Source of the DNA: a virus
DNA: 64,000 nucleotides
Reading direction: 5' to 3' (one strand)
Virus record (IMG/VR): IMGVR_UViG_3300008262_000231
Coordinates: 34,724 to 98,723 of that record
Part shown: positions 409 to 63,161 of the stretch, one piece after another
Position numbering within the stretch: the first letter of the stretch is position 1
Layout: every line of letters starts with the position of its first letter
Notes under the pieces: generated by a model
The model's input: the letters and a program-made list of their open reading frames with translations, nothing else
Database searches by the model: none
What the model was told of the DNA's origin: nothing
Made by a program: the position numbers and the translations under genes

Positions 409-1200
409 ATGAAAAATCTAAAAAAATTCAACGATCTAGTTCAAGAAGGATTTTTTGATCATGAGGTATTGGGTACTTTCGGGAATGTTATTAAAGATAC
501 TATGTCTTCTTCGGTAAATACCGATAGTATAGAAAACGAAACAGAATTAGAGGGGTTACCCGAGCCAGGAGGTTCTTTCTCAAATTCTCCCGCAGGAAAA
601 GGAATGCCTTTAGATTCTAATGCTACTTTATCTGCTGAGCAATATGATTCATACGGATCTAAGGTAGGAATATCCGACAAATCGGATAATGCTAAACTAG
701 AACAGCCATCATCCGGACCAGTTGGAAATATTGTAAATTCAGCATATGCTAATTTGAATGTTCCTACTAGAGGAATTCCCGGAACAGGAAGAGGAAATCT
801 CGGATGCGGAGCAGGAACTTCTTTAATGTTCTACCGAGCTACCGGATATTCTTTAGCAGGAAATACTAAAGTTTGCCTAAGTACTCAGACTATATACGAC
901 GAGTTAGAAGCAAAAAGCAAAGAACCGATGTCTGCTTGGAAAAAAATAGACAACTGGAGAACTAATTATAAACCGGGAGATATTATAGTTACGCGAAGGG
1001 GAGGAAGAGCTGGACACGTAGGAATAGTTGTTAATGATGGAAATATAATATCTAATTCTTCTTCTGGATTTGCAGGAGATAAAAGTGGCCAGATAGAGCA
1101 GAACTACACCATAAAATCCTGGGAAAGTGTAGCAAAAAGAAATCCTTCTAAAACCGCAATATTCAGATACCAAGGCCCTTATAAGAATAACTGGTCTTAA
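409..1200 (+). CDS. NlpC/P60/CHAP-like amidase with N-terminal head-targeting leader
   Basis: LGCGAGTS (Cys) ... PGDIIV ... GHVGIV (His) papain-like catalytic pattern; leader MKNLKKFNDLVQE/GFFD. Confidence 0.65.
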   Translation: MKNLKKFNDLVQEGFFDHEVLGTFGNVIKDTMSSSVNTDSIENETELEGLPEPGGSFSNSPAGKGMPLDSNATLSAEQYDSYGSKVGISDKSDNAKLEQPSSGPVGNIVNSAYANLNVPTRGIPGTGRGNLGCGAGTSLMFYRATGYSLAGNTKVCLSTQTIYDELEAKSKEPMSAWKKIDNWRTNYKPGDIIVTRRGGRAGHVGIVVNDGNIISNSSSGFAGDKSGQIEQNYTIKSWESVAKRNPSKTAIFRYQGPYKNNWS

Positions 1201-1445
1201 TGAAAAGATTTATAGCAGGAAGAGTAGAGGTTCATCTCGGATATAATTTCGAGGAAATGGATAAGCAGGATGCTATAGAAAAATGTAAAGAGTTAGGTCC
1301 TGAATGGAGATTGCCAAATAAGAAGGAAATCAATTATATTTGCTGGGATCTAGCTTATGGAGGTTCTTCTGATTTTTGGACATCTACCGGAACCCTGGGA
1401 GGAATAGTTAATCGAAGAGGAGGATACTTTAATGAACCCTCATAA
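1200..1445 (+). CDS. DUF1566-like protein, possibly C-terminally truncated
   Basis: DAIEKCKELGPEWRLPNKKEI motif; lacks the usual terminal VR strand. Confidence 0.55.
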   Translation: MKRFIAGRVEVHLGYNFEEMDKQDAIEKCKELGPEWRLPNKKEINYICWDLAYGGSSDFWTSTGTLGGIVNRRGGYFNEPS

Positions 1446-1739
1446 ATGGAAATCCCTGAAGATTCTAAAGATGGAAAATGGAAAGATTTTAACGAATTAG
1501 CGGAAAAAGAAGGATTTAGATTACCTACTTTAAAAGAGCTTCGGTATTTGTATTCATTGAAAAAAGATCTTGAAATTGGATCTTTTCCTGGTAGTTGGTT
1601 TTGGTCCTCTGAAGTCATGAAACTAAACGTATATTCTTCTGGATCTAAATATTACTTTAAGGATTTTAGGGGAGGAATAGAAGATTGGGAATATGGAAAT
1701 AGTCCCCATGCTCTTCTCATAAGAGTTTACGATAAATAA
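1446..1739 (+). CDS. DUF1566-like protein
   Basis: GFRLPTLKEL, FWSSE and LLIRV motifs. Confidence 0.65.
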   Translation: MEIPEDSKDGKWKDFNELAEKEGFRLPTLKELRYLYSLKKDLEIGSFPGSWFWSSEVMKLNVYSSGSKYYFKDFRGGIEDWEYGNSPHALLIRVYDK

Positions 1740-1745
1740 CCACAC

Positions 1746-1776
1746 AAAAAAACCAGAATCCTTTGGATCCTGGTTT
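1746..1776 (-). terminator. intrinsic terminator for the MTase gene (possibly bidirectional)
   Basis: On - strand AAACCAGGATCC-AAA-GGATTCTGGTTT stem followed by a T-run; lies between convergent genes. Confidence 0.75.
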
Positions 1777-1797
1777 ATCTTAAATTTATTTAATATA

Positions 1798-2805: not shown

Positions 2806-2866
2806 TTTTTCAATTTTGATAATTATATAATGATTTTTATAGACTATTTGTTTCTAAAAATTTCGG

Positions 2867-2874
2867 GATATATA
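2867..2874 (+). promoter_or_regulatory. putative late promoter GATATATA
   Basis: Motif 18 nt upstream of ATG 2893. Confidence 0.65.
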
Positions 2875-2892
2875 ATAAAAAATTACCTATTA

Positions 2893-3966
2893 ATGACAAA
2901 TTTGGAAAGTTTTTCGGGGTGGAGCTTAAATGAGGGACTATTCTTCTCTGATTTTAAGTGGGTATCTGCACCGAAAAATCTAACTTCTACCCAAAAATCT
3001 TCGATAGAGGGAAAAATGTCAATATTCGGTTCTGATATTATAGACACTGTAAATTTTTCATATACAAGCAGATACTGGGAATCCCTGAAGAAAAGACTAG
3101 GAGAAAATAAGATCCAATTTAAATACGGAAATTCTTCTGCTATTCCTAAGCAATGGATATACTGGAGTGAAAAAGTCATATATTCAGATCAAAGACCTTT
3201 ATTATCTAAGAATTCATCAGGACAGAAAGTCATAGCTTATTATCCATTATCTTATAATGGAGCTGTTCTTGATAAATTTTGGGTGATTGCGATATGGAAA
3301 GGGGAAGATGGAAAAAAATATCTAAGAGAAATGACTCTTAAGGACTTCCTAACTAAGTCAACTAAAGATATTATAGACAAAGATTTTTTATCCACTTCAG
3401 CGGTAAAAACCGACGTAGCTAAACAAAATAAAATAAATAAAAAAGATTATTGGACTTTAATTACAATAATAGCCTGTGAGAATTTTCCAGATCAAAAACA
3501 GGGAATGGCAGATGTTGCACAGTCCATATACAATAGGTACCACGTCAGTGGAAAGCCTTACGGTAAAACTATATCTGAAATCATATTAGCTAAATCCCAA
3601 TACGAACCGGTTACTAAGGGACTAAAAAAAGGAGCAGACTGGAAAAATATAAATGATAAGACTAAAGCTATATCAGTGTATATGAAGACAATTGGGGTTG
3701 ATATTAAGAATGCAACTAAAGCTATAGAATCAGCCATATCAGCTCAGTCCAACAAAACGTATATGGATAATGCAAGGTCCCACGTAAAAACAAGAACCGA
3801 GTTTCTAGCAAATCCCCCTTCTGCTTATTCAGCAGTTAGTCCGGTAGAAAGACCAGAAAAAAATAAAAACAATTCTTTTTTCTGGAATTATGCAGGGAAA
3901 AAGACCTATTATGCCAAAAATGATTTTTCGGCAAAACCTATACCACCAGAAGTCAAAAGTGTTTAA
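2893..3966 (+). CDS. SleB/Hydrolase_2-like cell-wall hydrolase with head-targeting leader (start reassigned from 2620)
   Basis: C-terminal TIIACE...MADVAQSIYNR...TISEIILAKSQYEPV resembles Hydrolase_2; ATG 2893 is in frame, follows GATATATA and avoids overlap with the MTase; leader MTNLESFSGWSLNE/G. Confidence 0.7.
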   Translation: MTNLESFSGWSLNEGLFFSDFKWVSAPKNLTSTQKSSIEGKMSIFGSDIIDTVNFSYTSRYWESLKKRLGENKIQFKYGNSSAIPKQWIYWSEKVIYSDQRPLLSKNSSGQKVIAYYPLSYNGAVLDKFWVIAIWKGEDGKKYLREMTLKDFLTKSTKDIIDKDFLSTSAVKTDVAKQNKINKKDYWTLITIIACENFPDQKQGMADVAQSIYNRYHVSGKPYGKTISEIILAKSQYEPVTKGLKKGADWKNINDKTKAISVYMKTIGVDIKNATKAIESAISAQSNKTYMDNARSHVKTRTEFLANPPSAYSAVSPVERPEKNKNNSFFWNYAGKKTYYAKNDFSAKPIPPEVKSV

Positions 3967-3967
3967 A

Positions 3968-3975
3968 GATATATA
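3968..3975 (+). promoter_or_regulatory. putative late promoter GATATATA
   Basis: Intergenic, 14 nt before ATG 3990. Confidence 0.65.
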
Positions 3976-3989
3976 GATAAAAAAGTATA

Positions 3990-5395: not shown

Positions 5396-5423
5396 AAACT
5401 TTTCTTTTTTATTTTTCTATTAT
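5395..5423 (+). promoter_or_regulatory. putative bipartite phage promoter GAAAC-N18-TATTAT
   Basis: Same 18-nt spacing seen at 30552, 47733, 52745 and 63706. Confidence 0.45.
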
Positions 5424-5428
5424 CTTAG

Positions 5429-5710: not shown

Positions 5711-5716
5711 TTCATA

Positions 5717-6929: not shown

Positions 6930-6933
6930 TAAA

Positions 6934-11640: not shown

Positions 11641-14091
11641 ATGAGTTTCGGGTTTGCAGGCGCTACGGATAGAGATAGATATAGGTTTTTAAGTGGATTT
11701 AAGCTTAATGACCAGGGAAAAAATGAAGACCCTACGTATCTAGGATTCTCTATAGATTTTGATTTTGGTGTACTAGGAATAGATCAAGAATACGGAATTC
11801 CAATAAGTCCACTATTTAAAGAAGGAAGCTATTATAACGATACGAATTTAAATATATTCGGTCAATATGATTACGAGGGAAGAGGAAAAACCCCAAAAGA
11901 TGTTCTTTTTTATTCTGCCCAAACCTATCTAGAGAATAGGGAAGTTGCGGTGACTAATAATGATTTTCCGGAAGCCGGGGGAAAAAGATCCCAAATGATT
12001 AAGCAATTTAAAATCCTTCTTAGGGATATAACTAAAAATCAACCCTGGTTTTTTCAATCTTTAGAAGGAGCAGATTCCTTATATAAGGTTGCAAGAGGAG
12101 GATATCAGGATGAAGATAAAGAATCTGATTTTAATGCATCAAGATCAGCAACTATAACAATAAGCACTTTAGAATCATTAAATCTTAGAATTACTGCATT
12201 AGCGGACCTTTACAATCACGCTACCTTCGATTTCATAAATATGAGAGAAACTATTCCTAAAAATCTTAGGAGATTTAGGATGTATATTTATGTTACCGAT
12301 TTAAGAAATTTCTTTAAGACCAATCGTCTTATAAATTCTTCTACTACATTAACAACGATAGCAAATACAGCTAACCTTATAGGATCTGGAATAAATCCCG
12401 GGAATAGTTTATCGGGAAGTACATTGGATAGTACCGGTAATTTTCCGGACGACACTGGTGCCCAAGGAGGAGCTTTCGGTAATGTTGTTGGTGATATAGC
12501 TAGATCCGAAGGTCTTACTAATCAGCAGGACCAATCCGGGATTAAACCTATAATCCTAATAGAATGTAGTAATTGTGAATTTGATTTTAATGAGACATCT
12601 CCTATATCCGCTAATATTAATGCGGGAACAGATTCTGGGGACCCACTAGGACAAAGTTTTAAAATACACGTAGGGAGAGTAAGAATAAGAAGTCAATATC
12701 CTAATATAAGAATGGATAAAAATCCTCTGATTATTTCCGATGATGTCTTCACTAACAAAAGCTCAGTTCAGAAGTATCAGGGAGATCCTTCGGGAAGAAC
12801 TGTTCTAGGTGTAGAAATACCTAATGGTCCAGCTGCAGATCTTTTAGAACAGGGAGCAAATCTGGGAACTAATTTTGTAGGTAATACGGTGAATAATCTT
12901 TACGATAGAGGGGTTCAGTTAGTAGCAAATGAACTCAGCGGAGCAGATCAGTTATTACTTGGGAACATCTATTCTTTTAATCCCTCCGAAGTTATGAAAG
13001 CTTTATCTGGGGATTTTTCAAACGTGGGTCTGAATTTTAACGAAAATTTAGGATTAGATTTTTCAAATCCCCTCTCAGGAGCATCTTCTGCTATTAAAAA
13101 CGGATTACCAAATCCTCAAACGATGGGACAAGGTGGGCCTCCCCAGAATAACTATTCCCCCGGGGATCTAGGAGGAGAGGGAATAGATTCTTATACAGGA
13201 GTACCGGGACAAGATCTAGGTGTTACCCCTCCAGGGTCTCCAACAATAGGAAGAGTCTATCCCATATTAAAACCGGAAGATTCATATCCTACTGTTCCTG
13301 GATCAGATCTAGGAGTTCCGGGGAGAGCTTACAAAGGGCCAGAAGGTGATGCTTATTCTACTGTTCCTGGATCTGATTTAGGTGTTCCCCAAAGAGCTTA
13401 TCCGAACCCTTCAGGGGATGCATATCTTAATGTACCCGGATCTGATTTAGGTGTTCCCCAGAGGGTTTACCCGGATCCTTCCGGAGATGTATACGATAAT
13501 GTACCGGGATCCGATTTAGGTGTTCCTGACAGAGTTTATCCACAGGTAACTGATGATTTCTATCCAGATGTTCCTGGAGTTGATCTAGGAGCTCCTGATA
13601 GGGTTTATCCTCAGATTAACGATGATGTTTATCTAAAAGTTCCGGGACAGGATTTAGGAGTTCCCGATAGAGCATATCCTATAGTAAACGATGATGCATA
13701 CCCAGACGTTCCGGGATCGGATCTTGGTTTACCTGGAAGGAGATACGAAGGAGTTAATGAAAATGTTTATTCCGGTGCTTCTACAGAATCCAATCAATTA
13801 AAATCCCCGGAAAGAATCTATACGGAAGAACCAATTAAGAAAGTAAATTTGAGGGAGGATGTATATGAGGATACAAATAAAAATTTAACAGAATTTTCGT
13901 CCAAACCTGCTCCGGTTTATCCTAAAGGAGATACTAAGTATTTTAGAGGGACTTTAGGAGATTTATATCCTCCAACACAAGAAGATTTTAATCCGGATGA
14001 GCCAGGAAATCTAGGAAACTTAAAAGTAGAAGGATCATATAATATAAGTCTAGGAGGTAAAAACCCAGATCGTACCAAATTTAATTCTTAA
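11641..14091 (+). CDS. tail-tube-initiator-like baseplate protein (gp54-like) with C-terminal 23-aa repeats
   Basis: Tube-fold-like N-terminal half (ITISTLESLNLRI...FRMYIYVTD...IECSNCEFD); Pro/Gly repeat tail. Confidence 0.45.
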   Translation: MSFGFAGATDRDRYRFLSGFKLNDQGKNEDPTYLGFSIDFDFGVLGIDQEYGIPISPLFKEGSYYNDTNLNIFGQYDYEGRGKTPKDVLFYSAQTYLENREVAVTNNDFPEAGGKRSQMIKQFKILLRDITKNQPWFFQSLEGADSLYKVARGGYQDEDKESDFNASRSATITISTLESLNLRITALADLYNHATFDFINMRETIPKNLRRFRMYIYVTDLRNFFKTNRLINSSTTLTTIANTANLIGSGINPGNSLSGSTLDSTGNFPDDTGAQGGAFGNVVGDIARSEGLTNQQDQSGIKPIILIECSNCEFDFNETSPISANINAGTDSGDPLGQSFKIHVGRVRIRSQYPNIRMDKNPLIISDDVFTNKSSVQKYQGDPSGRTVLGVEIPNGPAADLLEQGANLGTNFVGNTVNNLYDRGVQLVANELSGADQLLLGNIYSFNPSEVMKALSGDFSNVGLNFNENLGLDFSNPLSGASSAIKNGLPNPQTMGQGGPPQNNYSPGDLGGEGIDSYTGVPGQDLGVTPPGSPTIGRVYPILKPEDSYPTVPGSDLGVPGRAYKGPEGDAYSTVPGSDLGVPQRAYPNPSGDAYLNVPGSDLGVPQRVYPDPSGDVYDNVPGSDLGVPDRVYPQVTDDFYPDVPGVDLGAPDRVYPQINDDVYLKVPGQDLGVPDRAYPIVNDDAYPDVPGSDLGLPGRRYEGVNENVYSGASTESNQLKSPERIYTEEPIKKVNLREDVYEDTNKNLTEFSSKPAPVYPKGDTKYFRGTLGDLYPPTQEDFNPDEPGNLGNLKVEGSYNISLGGKNPDRTKFNS
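13186..13761 (+). repeat. tandem 69-nt/23-aa coding repeat, eight units (DxYxxVPGxDLGVPxRxY)
   Basis: Seen directly in translation: seven 23-aa units plus one longer first unit. Confidence 0.95.
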
Positions 14092-14771
14092 TGCCATCTA
14101 ATAAGTCATATTTAGGAGTTGTAGTCGATATAGCAGATCCTTTAAAACAAGGAAGAGCCAGAGTTAGGGTTTTTGGGATATTTGACGGTATTCCAGTTGA
14201 AGATTTACCCTGGGCAGAACCGGGAACCGCATGCGAGTACTTCGGAGGAGGCGGAGGCGGAGGAGCAGTTAGCGTTCCCCGGGTAGGAGCCGTAGTTTAT
14301 TGTTCTTTCGAGGGGGAAAATTATTATAAATTGTATTTTGATACGATAAAAGAATTTTGTCCTGAGCTTGTCGAGGAGATGAAAGAAGAAAATTCTTATG
14401 AGGGATTTCATTCTATAATATATGATACCGAAGCTGAGCCTGGAGCTTTAAAACTATTTTATAGTCGAAAAAAAGGTTTAGTATTTGAATTAGGAGATTC
14501 TAAAGTCCAATTAGATACTCAGAATGGAGGAGAGCTTAGAGTAGTTATAAAAATGGGAGATGACGAGATAAGAATGGAAAATAAAAAAGTTATAATAAAT
14601 TCCAATAATATAGAATTAGGAGAAGCTGCCGTCGAAAAAATAATAAAGGGAAGTACCTTTCTTACCCTCTTCAATTCTCACACCCACCCTACCCCCGTGG
14701 GACCTTCAGGAACTCCTATACCAACTATGGTCGATAATATACACTTAAGTCAGATATCAAAAACTAAATAA
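14091..14771 (+). CDS. baseplate central spike, gp5 OB-fold/gpV-like (no lysozyme domain)
   Basis: GVVVDIADPLKQGRARVRVFG...LPWA...VPRVGAVV; C-terminal FNSHTHP metal-binding tip motif. Confidence 0.85.
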   Translation: MPSNKSYLGVVVDIADPLKQGRARVRVFGIFDGIPVEDLPWAEPGTACEYFGGGGGGGAVSVPRVGAVVYCSFEGENYYKLYFDTIKEFCPELVEEMKEENSYEGFHSIIYDTEAEPGALKLFYSRKKGLVFELGDSKVQLDTQNGGELRVVIKMGDDEIRMENKKVIINSNNIELGEAAVEKIIKGSTFLTLFNSHTHPTPVGPSGTPIPTMVDNIHLSQISKTK

Positions 14772-24000: not shown

Positions 24001-25469
24001 ACTTTAATAAGTTAGCCCACTTTATCCCATTCACAGGGGATTTTAATGTAACCTGTAACGTCTACGACGGATTTAACAACAAATCTACTAAGATAAAAAA
24101 CAAGAATCTAACTGTTCAGCCTAAAAAAATAAAATTGGAATCCTGGGCAAATGAAGAAGCAAGTTCTTGGACAAGATATAGAGAAGTTGAATACTATTTA
24201 TGGGATAATATTTATCGGGGATGGGACGAATATGAATCCATATGGGAATATCCAGCAGAAGGTAAAAGCGAGAAAAAAATGACCAATCTAATTTCTAAAG
24301 AAATTTTAGATTTTGCATTTTACGGAAATAAAGCAGAGGAAGGACAGGATGTATACGTTAAAGTTAAAACAGACCCAGTAGGTGCTACAGGGGAAATAAG
24401 ACTAGCTCAATCCTTTTTAAATATTACTGAAATATATTCTTTAGAGGTAACTCCTACCCAATACGGGTATGTTAGAATATCTTTTCCTTCTCCGCATGGA
24501 CTAAATACAGGAGACTATATTTACATCTCTAATAGTATACCTGAACTTGCTGGAAGTTGGGAAATTACGGTCATATCATCTACTATAATCCGAATAAATA
24601 CCGTTTTAGAATCTACCTGGTCAGGGGTAATACCCTCGGTTTCCCCGAATAGATTACAGGTGTCTTCTATTTTATATCCATCCCAACAGATTACAGGAAG
24701 CGGATTTGTTTCTGTTAACGTGGGGGGAGTTACTATAGGATCTACCCCATCAGGACAAAGTCTATACAATACCACTAATTATTTAGTCTCTTCTATAAAT
24801 AATTTAACCACATATCCCGATTATTTTGCATATTGTAGCGATCCTACTACTAATCCTACTTCTATAATAATACACGCTTCGGATGATCTCGGGAGAACAC
24901 AAAATGGAATTCCAATGGTTGTTACGACCTCTGGACTTATATCTACATCTTATTACGATCCTACATTAGAGAATGGATTAAGTCCTTTAGAAACCTATGA
25001 GTATTGGAGTGAATCTAGTGAAAAATACCCTAACGAAAATTTAAAATTTTGGGGAACTAAAAGGATAAATTGGGATATATTCTATAACAATACTTGGGAA
25101 GATGGATATGCTCATTCTTGGTTAGATTTTGAATTTAATAATGACTGGCTAGGAGGATTTGAATTACATAATTTAAGTGTGGGGGATTTAATATCCGTAA
25201 GTTCTGGAATATTAACTCCCCCCGATACTAATAATTATAATTCTTCTATCTACAGCTTAGGATTTTATGGGATAACCGGATCTACTATACAGGAGATAGC
25301 AAATGAGCTAAATGGGAATTCTAATTCTCATATAGGAAATTATGATTATAGACCGATACCAAATGATACCGGATCTTTTAATAGTGATTCTCCACCGATT
25401 AATGTGGGAATACAGAGTTTTTCACCTTCTGCATCCCCTTATCCGGCTCCTCCTTCTGTCCCTGTATAG
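21039..25469 (+). CDS. large baseplate wedge/fibre-attachment protein (gp7-like)
   Basis: YIGSYKGLINALKFFGY...IKEYW resembles the gp7/gpI KG....L motif; contains GSGYTSSPT and PHGLNTGD structural modules. Confidence 0.55.
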   Translation: MADLKLRFFNKRGNPLNFEYIGPTGPSPLDSRFLYKTNSSYSSNGDVTFQQSGSDYIFQFNFSDVNFFDITEIANEIDYCIDRGSEIYLNGRVLGGKEFKGKISSCVITLNGIIITIPVNNFIGQNIISLSNTISFTVSYKNRPGGYFTGNIYFDPVSAGLYENEQIFITQQIIGPSGGIDYSYPRTLATGATSGKWRTRWYNNAYGSIDVTEILFTYKILDELEGGEGYPLIVSYPNIVYNDVIASSSDYYSNGSLNCPSFTSSESEALSVNVALNGPEISEEVYERKLIIEDISAGPTGDNVTKILEVNFYGQIIAEDERLKVLANNLGRSFNNEDSIILRNHDPKEPLPNYEEINEKRKELLLAGEDIFPYIGSYKGLINALKFFGYQDLRIKEYWLNLDFSEEDDLTSPLTKNQIVLNEIKNQRSQSGSQSYQIKDVLDNPNSGKYRMEQTYGPDSEGNYVLDISSQNTLVPSNTYKKTSLFGLYYDLNKVTSETDEFGYPVVVDSFQFTQEEVLIKLFGLKRKLKKDYLPLNARIIDITGEGIYFSVVNTKAWVDKVDINVIRSGSEFNFRLNPDLAYIEDLRNFNIKPDALPIQTPSSYYDTYDISVNVLGGTGSALYFTGFPDLGITGPSGPNLPLNVVVGKSYNFSLSTEGFTFYITESPSFTQQDPLGLIGNGATSGSSLMSWYINPQQTTPVYYYCPENPNINGTINILPPDVSDLGNIINPLDFQQNYNSVQNESLINSINQFYELKQEGKIQLLGDGKYDPPSYVDPSTNLPYKVPIGTPLVLELEVDRWTWEEMNFSWSGINLPSFKVGDLVEIKPQTASLTAGLTGGTIGSVTINFQGLGYTSVPLVTITGGGGAGAVLIPVITGSKVTSVTIFSSGSGYTSSPTLTIGSPSGDSGTVVNVNYNNGTYDVLLDSNGLIYTFEAFELSSSSQTYNLMNWKNIDFSNDLEIEWIINKDATQDGSPYNFEFRGSIIDFNKLAHFIPFTGDFNVTCNVYDGFNNKSTKIKNKNLTVQPKKIKLESWANEEASSWTRYREVEYYLWDNIYRGWDEYESIWEYPAEGKSEKKMTNLISKEILDFAFYGNKAEEGQDVYVKVKTDPVGATGEIRLAQSFLNITEIYSLEVTPTQYGYVRISFPSPHGLNTGDYIYISNSIPELAGSWEITVISSTIIRINTVLESTWSGVIPSVSPNRLQVSSILYPSQQITGSGFVSVNVGGVTIGSTPSGQSLYNTTNYLVSSINNLTTYPDYFAYCSDPTTNPTSIIIHASDDLGRTQNGIPMVVTTSGLISTSYYDPTLENGLSPLETYEYWSESSEKYPNENLKFWGTKRINWDIFYNNTWEDGYAHSWLDFEFNNDWLGGFELHNLSVGDLISVSSGILTPPDTNNYNSSIYSLGFYGITGSTIQEIANELNGNSNSHIGNYDYRPIPNDTGSFNSDSPPINVGIQSFSPSASPYPAPPSVPV

Positions 25470-25495
25470 ATTAGGATTTGACCTTTTTTTGAAAG

Positions 25496-25503
25496 GATAT
25501 ATA
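25496..25503 (+). promoter_or_regulatory. putative late promoter GATATATA
   Basis: 16 nt before ATG 25520. Confidence 0.65.
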
Positions 25504-25519
25504 ATAATAAAAAGAATTA

Positions 25520-28500
25520 ATGCCGGGAAGTAGTATTTATATAAATCAGATAGATTTAGATTCGAATTTTTTTGTTTGGGCAACTGGGCAAGACGTAAGA
25601 AAATTTAATGGAACAGCATGGGAATATTACGATAGCTCAAATTCCGCAGTTCCTAGTGGATCCCCTTATTATTTGGATACAAGATCTATATCCATCGACA
25701 ACAAAGGAATATTGTGGGGGGGAATAGCACAGATATCCAATGGGATTTCTCCAGCCAATAGTGAGGATGTATCTTTTTATTCTCAAAGAACCTCGAGTTT
25801 TAATGGATCTGTAAATTCTACTGCCGTTCAGTCTGACGGAAAAATATTAATGGGAGGAATTTTTACTTCTTTTAATGGAAACACTAGAAATAGATTGGTA
25901 AGACTTAATTCCGATGGAACTGAGGATACTTCTTTCTATACTAATCTGGGAACAGGTTTTTCTTCTGGTGTTACTAGTATTTCCCTACAATCGGATGGAA
26001 AAATACTGGTAGGAGGAAATTTTATTTCTTTTAACGGAAACACTAGAAATAGATTGGTAAGACTTAATTCCGATGGAACTGAGGATACTTCTTTCTATAC
26101 TAATTTAACAAGTGTAGGTACGGGTACAGCGTTTACCGGTATAATAACAGTAACAAGAGAACAGACGGATGGCAAAATTATTATAGGAGGATTTTTTAGC
26201 TCTTTTAACGGAAATACAAGGGAAAGACTAATTAGATTGAATCCATCGGGGATAGAGGATTCAACATTTTATTCAAACTTGTCCCTTTACGGATTTGGAT
26301 TTAATGGGGGGGTTTATGGAGTATCTATACAAAATGATGGAAAAATTATAGTTACGGGGTCTTTTTCTTTTTATAATTCATATCCTAGAACTGGAATAGT
26401 TAGATTAAATAGTGATGGATTAGAGGATACCCAATTTTATACTAATTTAATAAGCACGGGGGATAATTCGGGACTTCAGAATGGAGTACCTCTTATTAGC
26501 AGGACACAATCAGACGGTAAAATAATAGTAGGAGGATCATTTACCGATTTTAATGATAACGGAGGATACAATAGAAATAGAATACTGAGATTAAATTCTG
26601 ACGGGACTGAAGATTCTTCTTTCTACATACCAATAAGTCCAGGATTTGATCTTCCGGGGGATATTTATACTATAGAAATACAAACTGATGGAAAAATTTT
26701 AATAGGAGGGGATTTTACTACTTTTGCCGGAAATACTAGAAATTATAGCATAAGATTAAATTCTAGTACAACAACTCCGGGTACTCCTTTGATATTTAAT
26801 CTGGATACTTCTGAAGTTACGGTAGGAAAATCCTGGAAATCTGATGATATATCAACTTTCGATAATCTTTTATATGAAACTTCATTGGTATATTCTTCTC
26901 CTTTCGGGAGCGAGGTTTTAGCCTACATAACTCCTTTGAATGGTATAGGATCTACTGGAGCTACTGCATATACAAGAATAAATGGGGTTACGGGAGGAAG
27001 ATTATTTTTCTATGACAAGAATATAGAAAAATGGAATGAAACCCTTTCTGGATACACTTGGCCTCATATATTTCAAATTAAAGCTAAAGGGTATAAAGGT
27101 AAAGAATATAAATATTTTCTAGGAACAACGGAAGGACTTTGGGTAATACCGCCGGGACTTCTTAGTAAACTTTCTTTAAATGATGGAGGCGAAATAGTTA
27201 GTCAGGCAAGAGTCTATAATACTAGTACTAGTGGGATAATATCTAATAATATCTACACTATAGATTTTGACGAGAACGGGAATCTATGGATAGGAACAGA
27301 TTTAGGATTATCTTTTTTCGACGGAAGAAAATTTTGGAATTATTACACCTCTGGTCCAGTTACTTATGTAAAATCGAGAGAAAATGGGCATGTTTTTTAT
27401 TCCATAGGGGATGGAGAATTATCTCAGGGAACAGGACTTTATCACTTCAACGGAACTACCCACACAAATATAAATTCTTCTAATTCAGATCTTCCTAATA
27501 ATAATATACTTGAGATAGAATTAATTCAGAATGGAACTAAACAAGGAGACGTAACTTTACACGAGAATTCTTTATGGATATTGTCTTTGAATGATCTTTC
27601 TTCTTTTGTTTACGATCTTCCACATGTCTATGCTTCTTCTAAGTCTGAAGGAGCAACTGGGTGGAATTTTACATATAGAGTTCCTATAGGAGGAACCGGA
27701 GAGACTGGAGCTCCTCCTATTCCCAAAATTAATAAATACACCTGGAATTACCCTGAATGGCAGACTTACGATAGCGAATTTGTTGCTTCGGATCTTCCAG
27801 GATTAGATCCTAGAAATCTTTTTCTTACCGTTCCACTTAATGATATAGCAGACGGAAAAGCAGGGGAGCAATATTATTGGAGTAATTCTCCTATTACTAG
27901 TTACGACGAAAAAGTTTTAGGAGAAAGAATAGGGGAATCTTTATGGGATTCCCAGATAACTTTAGGAGGGTCTGGTGACATTAAGATTACCTGTTCTACC
28001 TCTTTAGAAACTGATCTAGGAATTAAATACCTGATAGGAGGGTATATCTCTGGTGATTCTGAAGCCACTTTTGGATACTATAATGATCTAACCCCAGCTA
28101 CTATAAATAATCTAAATCCTACTATAGGAGCTTCAGGTGGAACGGCTGGTTCCTCTAGTTTTTACGGGGAAATGGGATTTGTTGTTTGCTATGACTATTC
28201 GGGGTCTGTAGATACCATACTTCCATTTAGAGGATATAGAACAAGAATAGATTCCTTAGATCCTAGCCCTGATGATAATACTTTTTCCGTATCTGGATCT
28301 TACGATTGGTTTATGGAATCTGGACCTTGGGTTTGGCATTCTTGGGAAGGAGCTAATTCTTTTTCAGGAAACGGGGTTACCGGGTCACCTTACGGAGCTA
28401 CAAACTTAAATTATCCTGGATTAACATCGGGTAACTACAATTGGATATACGACCCTTTATCCCCCACATCTTCACCAATACTATCTAGTTCTTGGACTTA

Positions 28501-30553
28501 TAATTCAGGGGCTACGGGAAATATATCTTCTGGAGAGTTTGACCTGTCTTACTCATTATCTAATGATTTTCCGTATGTCAATGGAATTTATATTTCTTAT
28601 TTTGACGATTTGTCATCGGATCAAACCTCGATATTAGATTCTTTACTTACCTCTAACGTTTTAAGTATATCAGTTTCCCCAGATGCTTTATACACCATAA
28701 CATCTATATCGGCGATAACCGGAGGATTGTTTATAGGTCTTAGCTACCAATATGGAAACCCCGGGGTATTTCCTTTTTCAACCGGAAATAGTGTAAACCT
28801 AGATTTTTACGAATGGACAAACTATACATATCCATTAGTTAAAAATTTAAATTCATTTCCTGGGAATCCGGAAGGGTATTCCTATGGAGTATTTACTGCA
28901 GAAATACAAAGGGATCTAGGTAATAAATTTTCTTTTACAGGGATTACCGGAGACTATAATTCAGGTATAAATTCATCATATAGAGTTACAAGATTTAGAA
29001 ATTTCCCGGTTAAGAATTTAAATATCCTTACAGGTAATCAAGAAGTTCCTCTTACATCTGTCCAATTAACAAATTACCATACTCACCTATTAATAGAATC
29101 CAATGTTTCTGGTAATTTTGCAGATTTATCCACTCTTAAAAACGAATGGAATCGATCAAATGATAATTATCTTGTCGATTCTTATCTATCTGATCCTGCA
29201 TATACCGGATTACTTTCTTACGTTAAACTAAATAATTTAGATTACTCCCTTCAATCCAATTATAATTCAAACACCCCTGGATCTAGTGGATGGAGAAGAG
29301 TAGGATCCGAAATAAATTCTTTGGATCTTGGAGAATCTGTTGTTATAACCGGGTCTGCAACAGGGGGATTCTATTTTTCTGGAAATTATTTATCCCCTAC
29401 GGGATCTTCAAATTCTCCTTTCTATATTTCCATAACTAGTAATCCTGTAGGATCTACTGGATTCTATTTAACCTCATTCGGAAATACTGGAAATAAAATA
29501 GGGGTAACTAAAGACGAATCTAACTATTACATAACTACTGTGGTTGGATCCTCTGGATCTTATTTTGGGAAAAATTTTATAGCTGAATCCGGAAATACCT
29601 ATTTTTTAACAGCAAAACTAACGGAACAAACTGTATGCCGAAGTATTTTCTACCCATCTGTAACAGGATCTAATTCTACATTGGATTTAAAGACCACACT
29701 AAAGCTTCCTAACCATCAATTTGTTATACATTATGAAAATTATGATGATCCATATACGGTTAAATTATTAAAAACTGATGAGGATTCTAGAGTGACTAAT
29801 ACTGTAACAATAGGAGGATTTAATGGGGATCTTACTGTATGTAATGATATGGAATCTAATATATTCTTTTCTGGGTTTAATTCTTTAGGGTTAACCTCTT
29901 CAGCATATGTCGATTTTGGATATGTTGATATTGGATATTTTGTCTATACGGCCACCGGATTTGTTTATCTTGCCAAACAATATAAACCTAACTTGGGCAT
30001 AAATGAGGGAGAGATAATATCCAGACCTGGATCGGATCCTTGGACTTGGAGTGATTCTCACGTAAAAGGGGAAGGATCTTTTGAAGTTCCCCTCCTGTCT
30101 ACAGTTATCTTTAATAATTATTCTTCTGAAATATACGGTAAAAATACAAATAAATGGGTTTTATCTAATGCTATTACTGGAGAAGAAATATTAAATATAA
30201 AATATTCTCCTTATTTTATTTATACTTTCACCGAAGAAGGAGAATACACTATTTATAATGAGGTTCTGGATTCTGAAGGAAATGTATACGCAACTACAGG
30301 AAATGGATTCATAAGAGTGCTAGATCACAAAAAGATGAGAATCCCAGGAAGAAAATCCGCACCTATAAATTCTTCTAATTACGGGGTAGATCAACCTTTT
30401 GACGATAGGACTTACCAAGGACAAAAATTACGAAAAGATTTAGAAAAACAGCAGATAGAGATAGAGAGAAATAATAAACCTAAATTTACCCCTGCTATAG
30501 TTATACCTGATAATCCAGATTCTACTTACAAAAAAATAAATTTGGAATCGTGA
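25520..30553 (+). CDS. large beta-propeller virion/receptor-binding protein with delta-60 (DUF5122) and Reg_prop-like repeats
   Basis: Six QxDGKI(L/I)xxG repeats; IYTIDFDENGNLWIGTDLGLSFFDG and NSDLPNNNI two-component-regulator propeller motifs. Confidence 0.7.
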   Translation: MPGSSIYINQIDLDSNFFVWATGQDVRKFNGTAWEYYDSSNSAVPSGSPYYLDTRSISIDNKGILWGGIAQISNGISPANSEDVSFYSQRTSSFNGSVNSTAVQSDGKILMGGIFTSFNGNTRNRLVRLNSDGTEDTSFYTNLGTGFSSGVTSISLQSDGKILVGGNFISFNGNTRNRLVRLNSDGTEDTSFYTNLTSVGTGTAFTGIITVTREQTDGKIIIGGFFSSFNGNTRERLIRLNPSGIEDSTFYSNLSLYGFGFNGGVYGVSIQNDGKIIVTGSFSFYNSYPRTGIVRLNSDGLEDTQFYTNLISTGDNSGLQNGVPLISRTQSDGKIIVGGSFTDFNDNGGYNRNRILRLNSDGTEDSSFYIPISPGFDLPGDIYTIEIQTDGKILIGGDFTTFAGNTRNYSIRLNSSTTTPGTPLIFNLDTSEVTVGKSWKSDDISTFDNLLYETSLVYSSPFGSEVLAYITPLNGIGSTGATAYTRINGVTGGRLFFYDKNIEKWNETLSGYTWPHIFQIKAKGYKGKEYKYFLGTTEGLWVIPPGLLSKLSLNDGGEIVSQARVYNTSTSGIISNNIYTIDFDENGNLWIGTDLGLSFFDGRKFWNYYTSGPVTYVKSRENGHVFYSIGDGELSQGTGLYHFNGTTHTNINSSNSDLPNNNILEIELIQNGTKQGDVTLHENSLWILSLNDLSSFVYDLPHVYASSKSEGATGWNFTYRVPIGGTGETGAPPIPKINKYTWNYPEWQTYDSEFVASDLPGLDPRNLFLTVPLNDIADGKAGEQYYWSNSPITSYDEKVLGERIGESLWDSQITLGGSGDIKITCSTSLETDLGIKYLIGGYISGDSEATFGYYNDLTPATINNLNPTIGASGGTAGSSSFYGEMGFVVCYDYSGSVDTILPFRGYRTRIDSLDPSPDDNTFSVSGSYDWFMESGPWVWHSWEGANSFSGNGVTGSPYGATNLNYPGLTSGNYNWIYDPLSPTSSPILSSSWTYNSGATGNISSGEFDLSYSLSNDFPYVNGIYISYFDDLSSDQTSILDSLLTSNVLSISVSPDALYTITSISAITGGLFIGLSYQYGNPGVFPFSTGNSVNLDFYEWTNYTYPLVKNLNSFPGNPEGYSYGVFTAEIQRDLGNKFSFTGITGDYNSGINSSYRVTRFRNFPVKNLNILTGNQEVPLTSVQLTNYHTHLLIESNVSGNFADLSTLKNEWNRSNDNYLVDSYLSDPAYTGLLSYVKLNNLDYSLQSNYNSNTPGSSGWRRVGSEINSLDLGESVVITGSATGGFYFSGNYLSPTGSSNSPFYISITSNPVGSTGFYLTSFGNTGNKIGVTKDESNYYITTVVGSSGSYFGKNFIAESGNTYFLTAKLTEQTVCRSIFYPSVTGSNSTLDLKTTLKLPNHQFVIHYENYDDPYTVKLLKTDEDSRVTNTVTIGGFNGDLTVCNDMESNIFFSGFNSLGLTSSAYVDFGYVDIGYFVYTATGFVYLAKQYKPNLGINEGEIISRPGSDPWTWSDSHVKGEGSFEVPLLSTVIFNNYSSEIYGKNTNKWVLSNAITGEEILNIKYSPYFIYTFTEEGEYTIYNEVLDSEGNVYATTGNGFIRVLDHKKMRIPGRKSAPINSSNYGVDQPFDDRTYQGQKLRKDLEKQQIEIERNNKPKFTPAIVIPDNPDSTYKKINLES
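25877..26104 (+). repeat. 69-nt perfect direct repeat (25877-25945 and 26036-26104)
   Basis: GGAAACACTAGAAATAG...TTCTATACTAAT identical in two copies 159 nt apart. Confidence 0.9.
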
Positions 30554-57177: not shown

Positions 57178-57202
57178 TTTTTGAATATATAAAAATAAAA
57201 CA

Positions 57203-58464: not shown

Positions 58465-58487
58465 TTTTTTTTTAACAGAGAAAATCT

Positions 58488-58495
58488 TATATTTG
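58488..58495 (+). promoter_or_regulatory. Bacteroidota-type sigma-A -7 element TATATTTG
   Basis: Matches TAnnTTTG; intergenic, 21 nt before ATG 58517. Confidence 0.45.
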
Positions 58496-58516
58496 CCAGA
58501 AACGAAATAAAATAAA

Positions 58517-60298
58517 ATGTCAGGAATATCACATCTTTACGATCTATATAACAAAAAAGGACAAGAGTTTATAGAGAAATTGTTTAATACCTACGTTACT
58601 GTAAACGAGAAAATGGACGGTTCTGCTTTTATTTTCGAAAGGGGTTTAGAAACTGGTAAATTTAAATTCTATAAGAGGGATCAGAGAAATCCAATAACAA
58701 TGGTGGATAGAACTCTGATGAAATACTATGAAGTTCCTATCCAATATATAGAATCTCTTCCCCCACACATATTAAATAAAATACCGAGAGGGTGGAAATT
58801 CGGTCTTGAATATTTTTCAAATCCACAGCCAGTAGAGATTGCTTATGATAGAATTCCTAAGAATAACCTAATTCTTTCATATGTTCATGTTCTAGACGAA
58901 TCTGGTACAGTATGTAGAACTATCCAGGAAAAGGAAAATTAGATACATGGGCTGATCTATTAGGAATAGAAAGACCCCCTATTATTTTCCAAGGAGAATT
59001 AGATGACGATCAAAAGAATAAAATTCTAGAGTTTTTAAGAACTCCTTTTAACGAGTTAGTAGAGGAATTTAAAACCAAAAGTTTTGTTAGGTTCATAATA
59101 GGTATATTAAATCCTGAATTAAAAAAGACCGCACTAAACGAGGATCTAGATAAAGCTATAGAAGGTATAGTTTTTAGATTTGGGGATCCTGCAGGAGGGG
59201 ATCCGGTTCTTTCTAAAATGGTAGATCCTTTGTTTACCGAGATAGCAAAATCCAAAGCTCAGAAAAGAAGAGAAGAAAAACCTAGTGATTTTTTAGGGAT
59301 AACCCTAATAGATGTAATGAATTTTATTCTGGAAAAAGGAGTAGATTCTTTCGAATGCAAAGGAGATACTAACGACGAAAGATATGTTTCTTTCATGTCT
59401 TCTGTATTTGTGGAATTTCTTAGCGAGTATTCAGAAATGTACAAGGGAGCAGATTTCCAAGAACCTGAATACCTAAAGAAAGATGAATTTAGAATAAATA
59501 AAAAATTCATAACAAATAAAGATGTTATAAACTATCTAGAAGAAGACGAATCTTTTGAATCCCTGTTTAAACTAATGCTAAATTCTTTTAGAAAGATAAA
59601 GAAGAGAGCAGGTGGATTAATAAACCAAGGTGCTTTAGAACAATTCAATTTATTGGTTACCGACATTCAAAAAAGAGTAGAAAATGTAAATGAATCTTTT
59701 GTTTTCGAATCGGATTTACCGACTTTCCTAGATTTCAAAAGGAAAAATTCGGACAAGAATAAAGTTAACTATGTTACCGAAGAAACCGAAGGAGAAAAAG
59801 AAGAAGATCCTTTTTATTCTTATAATGAATTTATATCTGCTTTAGAAACTATAGATACCTCAAAAAAACCAAAATCTGATTTAATCGAGGAAGAAAAAGA
59901 ACCAGAAAAGGAATTAGAAGATGTAAATATCCTAATAGGAAGATTCCAGCCATTCCATAACGGATATCGTTAATAGAGGACTTTTAGGTGTAATATATGG
60001 AGCTGCTAAATCTCACGGATTCAATGTCAAATCCATAGGAGCAGGAGAAGATAGAATATTAGATTATAGAAAACAGATAGACTATTTAAAAAAGAACGGA
60101 TCTGATTTCCCTAAAGACATCGAAATAGTGAAAACCCCTAGAGCCACTAGTGCTACAGAGGTAAGAGAAAAAATAAAAAATGAAGACTTTACTTCTTTTA
60201 GAAAATTAGTCCCTCCTTCTATATCTTCACTCTATAATTCATTAGTAACTGGGATGAATTCCCACGTTAAGACTAATGAATCTTTAGAAAGTGAATAG
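58517..60298 (+). pseudogene. RNA/DNA-ligase-like plus HxGH cytidylyltransferase-like fusion gene interrupted by two frame breaks (near 58938 and 59964)
   Basis: VNEKMDGS (KxDG) in 58517-58942; -1 frame from 58939 is open into ORF 59218-59973 (IEGIVFRF...KMVDP); GRFQPFHNG then +1 frame 59963-60298 gives IGAGEDR...TSATEVREKI. Confidence 0.7.
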
Positions 60299-60305
60299 AT
60301 ATATA
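60298..60305 (+). promoter_or_regulatory. putative late promoter GATATATA
   Basis: Overlaps the upstream TAG, 4 nt before ATG 60310. Confidence 0.55.
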
Positions 60306-60309
60306 AGAT

Positions 60310-61164
60310 ATGGAAAAATTAAAATCTTTTTACGAATTCTTAAGTATTACAGAGTCTTTAGCAAAAGAAGGATCTGAAATACCGCCAGATCTAACTAAAA
60401 GCTCAGCTCCTTATTCTCCCACATCAGAAGCTCCAGAGAAATCTTCTTCTACTCAAACCTTAAATTTGGATAAATATGAGGAATATGGAATTGATCCTGT
60501 AGAGATATCAAAGGATTTTCAGAATATTGCTAAAGGTGGTTACGCTTGGAAAGATGGAAGTTCAGGTATGCCAGTAGACATTTATTTTAAATCCGAATCC
60601 CCACTATTTAAAAAACCATCAGATGGAAGCACATATTGTACAGGATTTACCTTTGCGGTAGGTTATATTACCTGTCTAAATAGAGGACTTCTGAATGATC
60701 TTACTGATTCAGATATAACTAAAATGCAGAAAATCTGGAATCAAGGGGATGCCAAAACATACCCTAAATTATGTGTTGATGCAATAGCTAATACTGAATA
60801 TTCTAACGGTAAAACATTAGGGGAAGAGGTCACTATAGAAAATGTAAAATCTGGGGATTTTTGCCAAATATGGAGAAATACAGGATTCGGACATAGTGTC
60901 ATAGTTCTGGAAATGATTAAGAAAGACGGTAAAACTGTAGGTATAAAATACTACAGTTCTAATACTAAAATTAACCCCCAAACTAAAAGATCTGGCCCTG
61001 GAGAAAATACAGAATATTTTACTGATGCCACCGGAATGGGAGGAAAAGTTCTTAGAAGTAAAACCTATTTTTCAAGAATATCCCCATTAGCCGTAAACAT
61101 CGAAGATGCAACAAAAACAATTGTGAATTCGGTTAAAAGCTTTGCTGGAAGTTTAGGAGATTAA
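60310..61164 (+). CDS. NlpC/P60/CHAP-like cysteine amidase with head-targeting leader
   Basis: TYCTGFTF (Cys) ... SGDFCQIWR..GFGHSVIV (His) ... YYSSN; leader MEKLKSFYEFLSITE/S. Confidence 0.6.
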   Translation: MEKLKSFYEFLSITESLAKEGSEIPPDLTKSSAPYSPTSEAPEKSSSTQTLNLDKYEEYGIDPVEISKDFQNIAKGGYAWKDGSSGMPVDIYFKSESPLFKKPSDGSTYCTGFTFAVGYITCLNRGLLNDLTDSDITKMQKIWNQGDAKTYPKLCVDAIANTEYSNGKTLGEEVTIENVKSGDFCQIWRNTGFGHSVIVLEMIKKDGKTVGIKYYSSNTKINPQTKRSGPGENTEYFTDATGMGGKVLRSKTYFSRISPLAVNIEDATKTIVNSVKSFAGSLGD

Positions 61165-61169
61165 ATAAA

Positions 61170-61835
61170 ATGGGAAAAATAAAAAAATTCTTGGATTTCG
61201 TAAATGAAGGCTTCTTTGATAATGAAGTTTTGGGAAATTTTGGGTCTATAATTTCAAATACATCCCGAAATTACGGGAGAGTAAATGAATTACCTACTAC
61301 TTTAGATACTGAATCCCCAAGTCCTTTTTCGACATCTAGAAATGATGAAACTTCTTGCGAAGGAAATGATTGTTGGACTTGGTTCGGAAAAGAAAAATTC
61401 TGGAACGGAGTTAATAAAGTAAATAATAAAACAGTTCCTAAAATTACTATAGATAAGGACCCAAAAAGTTTTAATATAACTTACGAAGGACCACCTTCTG
61501 GATTTCTGCTTAAGCATAAAAACGGAGGAAAAGGAGATACAATTCATCAGCTACTTAATGTATTGACATTAGAATTAAATTCTTATCTAGAAACTATATA
61601 TGCAAAACCGGTTTTAAGCGGAATTAAAATGGATTTAAGGGGAAATAAATTAAGTGTCAGTGTTCCCCTTCAGAGTTCCCCTAAACACTACGAAATCCAC
61701 AGAAGAGGGGGATTAGGACACGGAGGGGATTTTTCTGGACTTATTAAATACGAGTCTAATCCAGGATACGAAGAAGCAATACATAAATCCGGAAGACTAA
61801 CTGAAAAATTTGTCATCTTCCATAAATCAATTTAA
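61170..61835 (+). CDS. hypothetical protein with extended head-targeting leader
   Basis: MGKIKKFLDFVNE/GFFDNEVLGNFGSII shared with ORFs 409 and 61839. Confidence 0.7.
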   Translation: MGKIKKFLDFVNEGFFDNEVLGNFGSIISNTSRNYGRVNELPTTLDTESPSPFSTSRNDETSCEGNDCWTWFGKEKFWNGVNKVNNKTVPKITIDKDPKSFNITYEGPPSGFLLKHKNGGKGDTIHQLLNVLTLELNSYLETIYAKPVLSGIKMDLRGNKLSVSVPLQSSPKHYEIHRRGGLGHGGDFSGLIKYESNPGYEEAIHKSGRLTEKFVIFHKSI

Positions 61836-61838
61836 TTA

Positions 61839-63161
61839 ATGAAGAATCTAAAAAAATTTTCTGATTTTATAAATGAAGCATTTCTAGACGATAAAGTACT
61901 TTCTACGTTCGGAGCTATAATTAACAATAGAAAAGATTATTCATATTCAGAATCTCCTTCTATTGTTTCCTACGGAAATCCTGGATCGATAAATAAAACT
62001 TTGGTTCCCATTAAAAACACAGATCCCAAGAATATTTTATTTATAGGGGATTCACATACTGCTATTAAGAACAAAGAGGGAAAAGCAGTAACCTACACCT
62101 TTCCTAATATATTAAAAAAAGAATTAGAGCCAAATGGATATAAAATAGACGTCTTGGCTCTCGGAGGAATGACTACCCAATGGATGCTTGATAATCTTCC
62201 TAATCAGCTAAAAAATAAAAAATACGATAGGGTTTACATCTACGGGGGAGCAAACGATGCTGCAAATTCTAGTATTACCCTAGATAAAGCGTTATCCAAT
62301 ATACAAAAGATGGTAGATCTTTCCAGAAATAATGGAGCTGATGTATTTGTAAATCAGGGTTATATTATCGAAGGAGAAAATGGAAAATTTGGAAATTGGA
62401 AAAAAATGTCAATTTCAGGTACTCTTCTCAAAAAACAAGAAGAATGGATACCTTACATAGAAAGAAAAAAAGAACTTCAGAGAAGAATACCTTTAGAAAT
62501 AAAAAATTCTAATTTCATTTCTCCTTACGATTTAAAAGGATTAACTTCCGATGGAATACATGCTAATTCTGAGGGACAAAAGATTGTAGCTAAAATTTTC
62601 TCTGACTCCATAAAAAACACTTCATCTTCTTCAGAAAACTATAAATCTATTTCTAGTCCTAGAGTAGGCCCAGCAGGTAAAAGTATAGTTATAGGAGATT
62701 CATTATCTCCCAACGTAGCAAAGTGTTCACAAGCTGATTTAATAAGTAGCACAGGAGGTTCTTCTTCTCTTTGGAAAGGAGGAATAGCAATAGGAACCTT
62801 ATTGGATTATGTAAAATCTTACGGAAAAACTGATGCTACTATTAAAAATGTTGTGATATCCATAGGAACAAATGGTATATTCGGTAGAAGCACAGACACG
62901 GTAAATAAATTAATGGATGAGTTAAAGAAAAAATTCCCAAATGCAAAAGTTTTAGTTGTAAAAGGAACTTACGGTCCAAAAGCTACATGGTCCCCTGCTT
63001 TAACTAAGGTTAGTCAAACTACAGTAGATAATTACTATTCAGATTTTTCTAATAAAGGAGCTTTCGTAGTTCCTACTGCGATTGGGAATCAAAAAGATGC
63101 TCATAACTATACGGATATATACACTACTATCGGAAAAGAGATAGACGCTAATCTGAGTTAA
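61839..63161 (+). CDS. tandem double SGNH/GDSL hydrolase with extended head-targeting leader
   Basis: Domain 1 FIGDSHT...GGAND...DGIHAN; domain 2 VIGDSLS...SIGTNG...DAH. Confidence 0.8.
   Translation: MKNLKKFSDFINEAFLDDKVLSTFGAIINNRKDYSYSESPSIVSYGNPGSINKTLVPIKNTDPKNILFIGDSHTAIKNKEGKAVTYTFPNILKKELEPNGYKIDVLALGGMTTQWMLDNLPNQLKNKKYDRVYIYGGANDAANSSITLDKALSNIQKMVDLSRNNGADVFVNQGYIIEGENGKFGNWKKMSISGTLLKKQEEWIPYIERKKELQRRIPLEIKNSNFISPYDLKGLTSDGIHANSEGQKIVAKIFSDSIKNTSSSSENYKSISSPRVGPAGKSIVIGDSLSPNVAKCSQADLISSTGGSSSLWKGGIAIGTLLDYVKSYGKTDATIKNVVISIGTNGIFGRSTDTVNKLMDELKKKFPNAKVLVVKGTYGPKATWSPALTKVSQTTVDNYYSDFSNKGAFVVPTAIGNQKDAHNYTDIYTTIGKEIDANLS

Follow-up and report, generated by a model that had tools for sequence, protein, structure and literature searches.

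A two-part N-terminal leader on putative cell-wall enzymes of a large freshwater phage lineage, a candidate tag for head-packaged lysins

The window studied here is a stretch of 64,000 nucleotides, bases 34724-98723 of a 98.7-kb virus record (IMGVR_UViG_3300008262_000231, here G000). Coordinates of open reading frames (ORFs) are those of the window unless they carry the prefix G000:C1. On the plus strand of the window, ORFs 409-1200 (263 aa), 61170-61835 (221 aa) and 61839-63161 (440 aa) have a common N-terminus of 28–30 residues. It consists of a 13-residue leader resembling the capsid targeting sequence (CTS) of phage T4 (part 1) and a second element of 15 residues (part 2), and is followed by a linker and a body that differs from gene to gene. 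The best reading of this two-part module, which we put forward tentatively, is a modular, head-packaged lysin cargo.

The three ORFs start exactly as quoted in an earlier note on this DNA, which was made from the sequence alone and had proposed the shared N-terminus. A fourth two-part gene lies upstream of the window (G000:C1:12258-13022), and about ten further copies were found in two close relatives (two in G001 and four in G002) and in metagenomes. The leader profile detected the four places in the genome with E values from 1e-22 to 4e-19, as well as the six genes in the two relatives. When a profile of ten leaders was compared with 1.84 billion representative proteins, about 11 genuine members were recovered, in which the match starts at the annotated N-terminus or a few tens of residues from it. 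Four other matches in the same search turned out to be unrelated repetitive proteins. The profile search proposed in the earlier note thus recovered further copies, and their C-terminal cargo varies. Leader-only word searches returned orthologues alone, no Pfam family spans residues 1-35 of any tagged protein, and trafficking domains of the MIX, PAAR and LXG types were not found by Pfam.

After removal of the first 32 residues, the bodies of ORFs 409, 61170 and 61839 and of the fourth gene gave no mutual blastp match at E<0.01; the bodies are unrelated, as had been claimed, and the proteins are not full-length paralogues. The linkers contain 43–66% Ser, Thr, Pro, Gly and Asn, compared to 35% in the proteome. 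The leader DNA of the copies differs at synonymous sites. For leader codons 2-28, the nonsynonymous divergence (dN) is mostly 0.26–0.45 and rises to 0.69 in pairs with the G001 gene G1_51752, while the synonymous divergence (dS) is at least 1 or saturated for most pairs and 0.5–0.9 in three pairs with G1_51752. Low dN against high or saturated dS indicates that the shared N-terminus is old and has been kept by selection, rather than recently copied. Part 2 is under purifying selection.

Part 1 has the consensus M-K-x-[IL]-K-x-F-x-x-F-[ILV]-N-E. T4 ipI, ipII and ipIII were used for the leader comparison, and in the MAFFT alignment with IPII and IPIII the ten-residue T4 leader was placed on residues 4-13 of the leader described here. 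T4 residues Y4, F7, I8 and E10 fall on F7, F10, [ILV]11 and E13. In the T4 CTS, residues 4 and 7 mainly determine targeting, and residues 8 and 10 processing (PMC9026906). The T4-CTS likeness that had been suggested for the first ~13 aa is therefore seen at all four functionally mapped positions. The putative cut site, [ILVA]-[NQE]-E followed by G, A, S or N, is present in 10/10 two-part leaders and also in most one-part leaders, which have part 1 without part 2. A part-1 matrix (residues 2-13) reached 5 bits or more at 9 of the 94 gene starts; among 29,625 internal windows there were 12 such scores, and among 370 internal Met residues there were none. Using the profile, we found about 20 leader genes in the 98.7-kb record, on both strands. 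One of the leaders is an 18–22-residue extension before the Pfam domain of an Fe/Mn superoxide dismutase (G000:C1:13022-13687), and this enzyme may be packaged as well. The superoxide dismutase gene contains four N bases (G000:C1 13244-13247).

The head genes of the lineage are of the T4 type. The record has a G+C content of 33% and a CheckV completeness of 36%, which implies a genome of roughly 270 kb; related contigs measure 249–290 kb. The nearest proteins to its capsid protein and primase belong to LR756500 (an uncultured phage of 462 kb), followed by those of Lak megaphages, Tenacibaculum phages PTm1/PTm5 and Flavobacterium phage MaF61. The record codes for a major capsid protein of the T4 gp23 type. 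The first ORF of the record (G000:C1:2-1558), located before the capsid gene, shows 31% identity to the scaffold part of an LR756500 protein of 632 aa, whose N-terminus is a Peptidase_S77 (gp21-type) domain. This ORF contains 16 tandem 14-residue repeats (Y-L-A-E-N-x-D-K-N-I-S-Y-S-E), each with Y-[LIV]-A-E and then N, so that the scaffold looks like a string of putative protease sites. The fused Peptidase_S77-scaffold protein is also found in G003, a complete relative, and in G007, and the S77 domain is present in LR756500, PTm1, G003 and G007. Thus, the lineage has a gp23-type capsid protein together with a fused gp21-type protease-scaffold. Both genes directly after the capsid gene carry part-1-like N-terminal leaders, of which the profile detected only the first. 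The capsid gene itself lies upstream of the window in two frames, G000:C1 1590-2543 and 2588-3175, which overlap near a GGGG run at ~2470-2490; an assembly indel or a real frameshift is possible.

LR756500 has a one-part leader, M-K-Y-I-K-x-Y-x-x-F-x-N-E, with no part 2. The cargo of this leader in LR756500.1 includes leucine-rich-repeat proteins and a ligase-like protein with the K-x-D-G ligase motif. At the sensitivity used, part-1 profiles found no leader in Tenacibaculum phage PTm1 or Flavobacterium phage MaF61 and almost none in Lak-A1. We also considered the leader as a copy of the scaffold repeat and rejected this idea: hhalign paired Y-s-E-Y-L-A-E-N with F-x-E-F-I-N-E-G with P 0.096, and a repeat matrix did not score the leaders above other N-termini or shuffles (Mann–Whitney p 0.58). 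The cut-site motif is the sole feature common to the leader and the scaffold repeat. A 7-residue pattern was counted at 5 N-termini, at 15 sites of the scaffold and at 8 other places.

It is conceivable, but in our opinion unlikely, that the leader does not load proteins into the head at all. The tagged proteins would then be tail or baseplate lysins, soluble lysis enzymes or proteins sent to a different site or fate within the infected cell, and the likeness to the T4 CTS would be convergent. About 20% of genes carry part 1, including minus-strand genes among non-structural genes, ORFs 409 and 2893 adjoin the baseplate module, and known virion lysins are mostly tail proteins (PMC6116005). However, convergence accounts poorly for the fit at the four mapped T4 positions, for the T4-type protease-scaffold and capsid protein in the lineage and for the two leader genes directly after the capsid gene. 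The leader also has no Sec, lipoprotein or signal-arrest-release (SAR) features: Lys, Asp and Glu occur throughout the leaders, and the genuine signal peptides of the same genome differ from them. Nor is there a radical-SAM enzyme that could use the leader as a recognition tag, since PF04055 is absent from G000, G003 (100% complete) and G007, with 14/14 control genomes positive. A near-identical minus-strand gene pair (G000:C1:26192-26680 and 28303-28779) has classical signal/lipoprotein-type N-termini. Two leader genes that are paralogues of each other (24866-26125 and 26821-28215) lie next to this pair, one beside each gene.

The bodies behind the leader were then compared with known enzyme families. 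In ORF 409, part 1 (409..447, residues 1-13) ends with V-Q-E, and part 2 (448..492, residues 14-28) reads G-F-F-D-x-x-V-L-G-x-F-G-x-V-I. The rest of the ORF (493..1200, like both parts on the plus strand) is Ser/Pro/Gly-rich to about residue 130 and CHAP/NlpC-P60-like after it. Pfam CHAP matches residues 177-213 with E 2e-5 and 25.4 bits, just below the cut-off of 26, and PHROG endolysin and tail lysin families match residues 133-244, in agreement with the NlpC/P60-like body proposed earlier. The AlphaFold2 (AF2) model of this protein was built on five sequences and had a mean pLDDT of 44.8; for this reason it was not used for a fold search. In ORF 61839, the two-part leader and linker are followed by an SGNH/GDSL domain (residues 66-253, 53 bits), a Ser-rich spacer and a domain with a GDS motif (residues ~278-440). 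Of the double SGNH hydrolase claimed for this ORF, the first domain is solid; the second half has the GDS motif, and its stand-alone homologues give weak GDSL matches.

ORF 61170 consists of the leader (residues 1-28), a linker (residues 29-55) and a body that starts with S-R-N-D-E-x-S-C. Its domain had been called unknown, and we found no Pfam or PHROG family for the body and no match of its fold in the PDB (Foldseek E>0.07, best VIA Z 5.7). In the AF2 model pLDDT exceeds 90 over most of the body and is below 50 at residues 13-47, and the leader is not packed on the body. A gene of this type is among the tagged lysin genes in every clade seen, and the ORF 61170 family is a candidate new cell-wall enzyme. 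Many Asp, Glu, His and Arg residues of the body are invariant, and a Cys pair is conserved.

The two-part leader also precedes an Amidase_2 domain in G2_72887 (Pfam 44 bits, above the cut-off), a GH24 phage lysozyme in P0085 (Phage_lysozyme 33 bits, above the cut-off) and the second SGNH-like domain alone in G2_73972, P0081 and P0083. The fourth gene of the record (G000:C1:12258-13022) encodes an alpha/beta-hydrolase, and its nearest Atlas structural cluster is viral, with PG_binding_1. G1_51752, the orthologue of ORF 60310, is NlpC/DUF1175-like, which is a lead only. No family could be assigned to P0091/P0092 or, as described above, to the ORF 61170 family. These data suggest that part 2 sits almost only on cell-wall hydrolases or esterases. 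Counted by family, cell-wall enzymes are commoner in two-part than in one-part cargo, with p 0.0017 for lenient and 0.064 for strict counting. A SleB-like cell-wall hydrolase (2893..3966, plus strand) has a part-1 leader, M-T-N-L-E-S-F...L-N-E, and a degenerate part 2, G-L-F-F-S-D-F-K-W; Pfam Hydrolase_2 matches it with 28.6 bits, above the cut-off. The gp5-like baseplate hub (14091..14771, plus strand, 226 aa) has no lysozyme domain. It aligns only to positions 19-97 of the 868-position PHROG 430 'baseplate hub subunit and tail lysozyme', that is, to the N-terminal part of the family, which indicates that the hub has no lysozyme of its own.

In the metagenomic protein P0082, a two-part leader and an SGNH-like domain are found together with weak similarity to a dual-specificity phosphatase (E 7e-5, below the cut-off). 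The small paralogous ORFs 3-395, 1200-1445, 1446-1739 and G000:C1:11785-12213 show weak Lcl_C (DUF1566-like) similarity with a G-W-R-L-P motif, and such ORFs lie directly upstream of ORF 409 and of the fourth two-part gene.

Part 2 has the consensus [GASN]-F-[FL]-D-x-x-[VF]-[LF]-x-x-[FL]-G-x-[IV]-[IL], after which the Ser/Thr/Pro-rich linker begins. The ORF 61170 body has 76 homologues. Almost every full-length one carries a part-1-type leader and a linker ahead of the body. What serves as the second element depends on the clade: it is of the G-F-F-D-N-x-V-L-G type, of the Q-L-F-x-D-A-N type, or an Ala/Glu/Lys-rich helix. For the sister clade, represented by G003, the cargo was tabulated from flanking DNA. 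Here an Ala-rich second element is common to the ORF 61170-type gene and the neighbouring SLT transglycosylase, and the gene after the transglycosylase encodes a CHAP enzyme. The design recurs in the sister clade with a different sequence, which is compatible with co-evolution of the peptide and a lineage-specific partner. The earlier note had expected the post-cleavage motif to be conserved; this holds across different cargo in the close clade, and in distant homologues the motif is replaced.

The same variation allows another explanation, which is possible but rather doubtful. Part 2 may have no signal function and be the downstream half of a longer propeptide or spacer inherited by a lysin gene family. 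It could have been kept since new cargo is acquired through recombination in the linker and since the protease or scaffold needs a helical context at the cut site. Apart from the second element varying by clade while part 1 is constant, ORF 60310 has no part 2 and its orthologue has one, and a single ancestral leader could underlie all two-part genes. AF2 also predicts, with low confidence, a helix-break-helix across the E-G junction (in ORF 409, helices at residues 2-12 and 18-33 with pLDDT near 50). A mere inherited spacer is harder to reconcile with the near saturation of dS in most paralogue pairs at a dN of mostly 0.26–0.45, which means that selection has long kept part 2 on at least nine different bodies. 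Moreover, a leader can consist of part 1 alone, as the one-part leaders show. A role of part 2 in sorting or docking, separate from part 1, is an attractive hypothesis.

We also assessed whether part 2 could act on a membrane. The predicted mature N-terminus would start with G/A/S/N-F-F/L, and Phe, Gly, Leu and Ile are frequent in it. After cleavage this Gly-initiated hydrophobic end might enter the host membrane in the manner of a viral fusion peptide and so anchor the enzymes in the periplasm. The long flexible tether and the envelope-acting enzymes behind part 2 would suit such a role, as would the mean hydrophobicity, 0.41–0.56 versus 0.32 in the proteome. However, the net charge lies between 0 and −2, and the helical hydrophobic moments are mostly ordinary, with values of 0.15–0.32 in 7/10. 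In addition, the sister-clade element is polar, Ala/Glu/Lys-rich, with a hydrophobicity of 0.02–0.31, and precedes the same kind of cargo. Thus charge and hydrophobic moment give no support to part 2 as a membrane anchor, and we consider insertion very unlikely. The periplasmic delivery suggested in the earlier note fares no better as far as anchoring is concerned, because part 2 is acidic and only moderately hydrophobic.

The exchange of bodies behind the leader is best seen in a four-gene cassette on the plus strand, in which the genes are separated by 5, 3 and 12 nt. The first gene (60310..61164) has a one-part leader ending with I-T-E, a Pro/Ser/Thr linker and an NlpC/DUF1175-like body; the Atlas gave a lead of 0.92 to DUF1175/NLPC_P60 clusters, and no Pfam or PHROG match was found. 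ORFs 61170 (61170..61835) and 61839 (61839..63161) follow, and the cassette is closed by a gene for a 176-aa protein (63174..63704) with a one-part leader ending with V-N-E. The closing gene is 88–96% identical among G000, G001 and G002 and closes a variable cassette in all three, and the genes upstream of it differ. The cassette proteins are 284, 221 and 440 aa long in G000, 275, 213 and 449 aa in G001, and 236, 362 and 228 aa in G002. ORF 60310 has part 1 only, while its G001 orthologue G1_51752 has the full two-part leader. In G2_73972, domain 2 of ORF 61839 (89% identity) has a leader of its own and is the only domain. Domains are thus shuffled behind the tag among relatives. The same body with a one- or two-part leader, together with the separate SGNH-like domain, bears out the interchangeable cargo on one tag that had been proposed. 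The cassette-bearing stretch was found in lake and freshwater metagenomes from several studies, with no RNA dataset among the sequencing runs listed.

A promoter-like motif, GATATATA, lies on the plus strand at 60298..60305, before the cassette and ahead of ORF 60310, and at 387..394, 22 nt upstream of ORF 409. Similar motifs are found upstream of ORF 2893 and 12–31 nt upstream of several baseplate and tail genes. They precede 9 of 18 leader genes versus 19 of 77 other genes (Fisher p 0.036). This late-type, promoter-like motif is common to leader and tail genes, and together with the CTS-like leader it gives indirect support only to a place of the tagged proteins in the virion.

In the reading we prefer, the tagged proteins would be virion cargo built of part 1, part 2, a flexible linker and an exchangeable enzyme. 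Part 1 would act as a T4-type CTS and direct the protein to the scaffolding core inside the prohead; a gp21-type prohead protease would then cut part 1 off after the Glu of [ILV]-x-E. We infer both packaging and cleavage. The remainder, with part 2 foremost and a Ser/Thr/Pro-rich tether behind it, would stay in the filled head and be expelled at infection. The tagged wall enzymes would then serve as entry lysins in place of the lysozyme domain missing from the gp5-like hub. Part 2 would most likely be a lineage-specific docking peptide holding this subset of enzymes at a defined partner in the particle, and the linker would let the catalytic domain reach its substrate while part 2 is docked. 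Docking by part 2 and ejection ahead of the DNA are speculative. A further elaboration, which we regard as rather unlikely, is sorting in two steps. Part 1 would load any cargo and be cut off, and the exposed part 2 would sort the wall enzymes near the exit, where the portal, the tail channel or a multi-enzyme complex could be the partner. These enzymes would leave first and act in the periplasm, and the other cargo would follow the DNA to the cytoplasm.

Several results weigh against packaged lysins with a docking signal. No Peptidase_S77 match was found in this 36%-complete record; the end of the contig cuts the N-terminus of the first ORF, which would explain the missing protease domain. 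About one gene in five has part 1, on both strands, which is far above T4, and another role of the leader is possible. Part 2 is conserved in the close clade only, and AF2 gave low confidence for the leader. Most one-part cargo has no recognisable domain, and for this reason the link between part 2 and lysins is suggestive only and rests on few families.

The arrangement resembles known systems in part. T-even internal proteins are a diverse set with the CTS as their only common part, and the swapping of cargo on one CTS is established (PMC3012670). Like the CTS of T4 IPI, IPII, IPIII and Alt, the leader described here is short, has an aromatic residue at both targeting positions and ends with [ILV]-x-E, and as in T4 it precedes unrelated cargo at variable loci. 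Unlike the T4 CTS, this predicted leader has 13 residues, with three extra at the N-terminus. It is found on ~20% of genes, whereas T4 has a handful, and a subset of the proteins adds the 15-residue second element and the Ser/Thr/Pro linker. The T4 cargo is made up of small basic anti-restriction proteins, and the cargo here of predicted cell-wall-breakdown enzymes. The principle of T4 internal proteins is thus known, and the new form here is lysin cargo with a second element.

A wall enzyme inside the head also has a precedent. The T7 core protein gp16 carries a lytic transglycosylase domain in the capsid, is expelled at infection and opens the wall locally (PMC6116005). By analogy, a peptidoglycan-degrading domain is proposed inside the head here. 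However, gp16 is a single large core protein with several functions and has no targeting leader that could be cleaved off, while in this contractile-tail phage several small single-enzyme proteins of different catalytic classes appear to share one tag. In phiKZ, 201phi2-1 and SPN3US, dozens of head proteins have N-terminal propeptides that are cut after Glu by a gp21-related protease (PMC9026906). Those propeptides are long and are not a common short tag, and the lineage described here is nearer to the heads of Lak-type phages, LR756500 and Tenacibaculum phages. Address modules joined by a linker to interchangeable catalytic domains, including amidases, muramidases and esterases, are also known from polymorphic effectors (of the type VI secretion system MIX/PAAR and LXG types) and from the dockerin-linker-enzyme proteins of cellulosomes. 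The likeness is an analogy only, because the proposed delivery route is a phage head and not a secretion system or scaffoldin.

If the tagged enzymes are indeed packaged, it would become clear how huge phages whose tail spike lacks a lysozyme get past the cell wall. The T4 principle of capsid targeting would then also apply in a large uncultured freshwater lineage, and the tag would be a natural, portable means of bringing enzymes into phage particles. The class-specific second element would give a first hint of sorting by function among the proteins packaged in a head.

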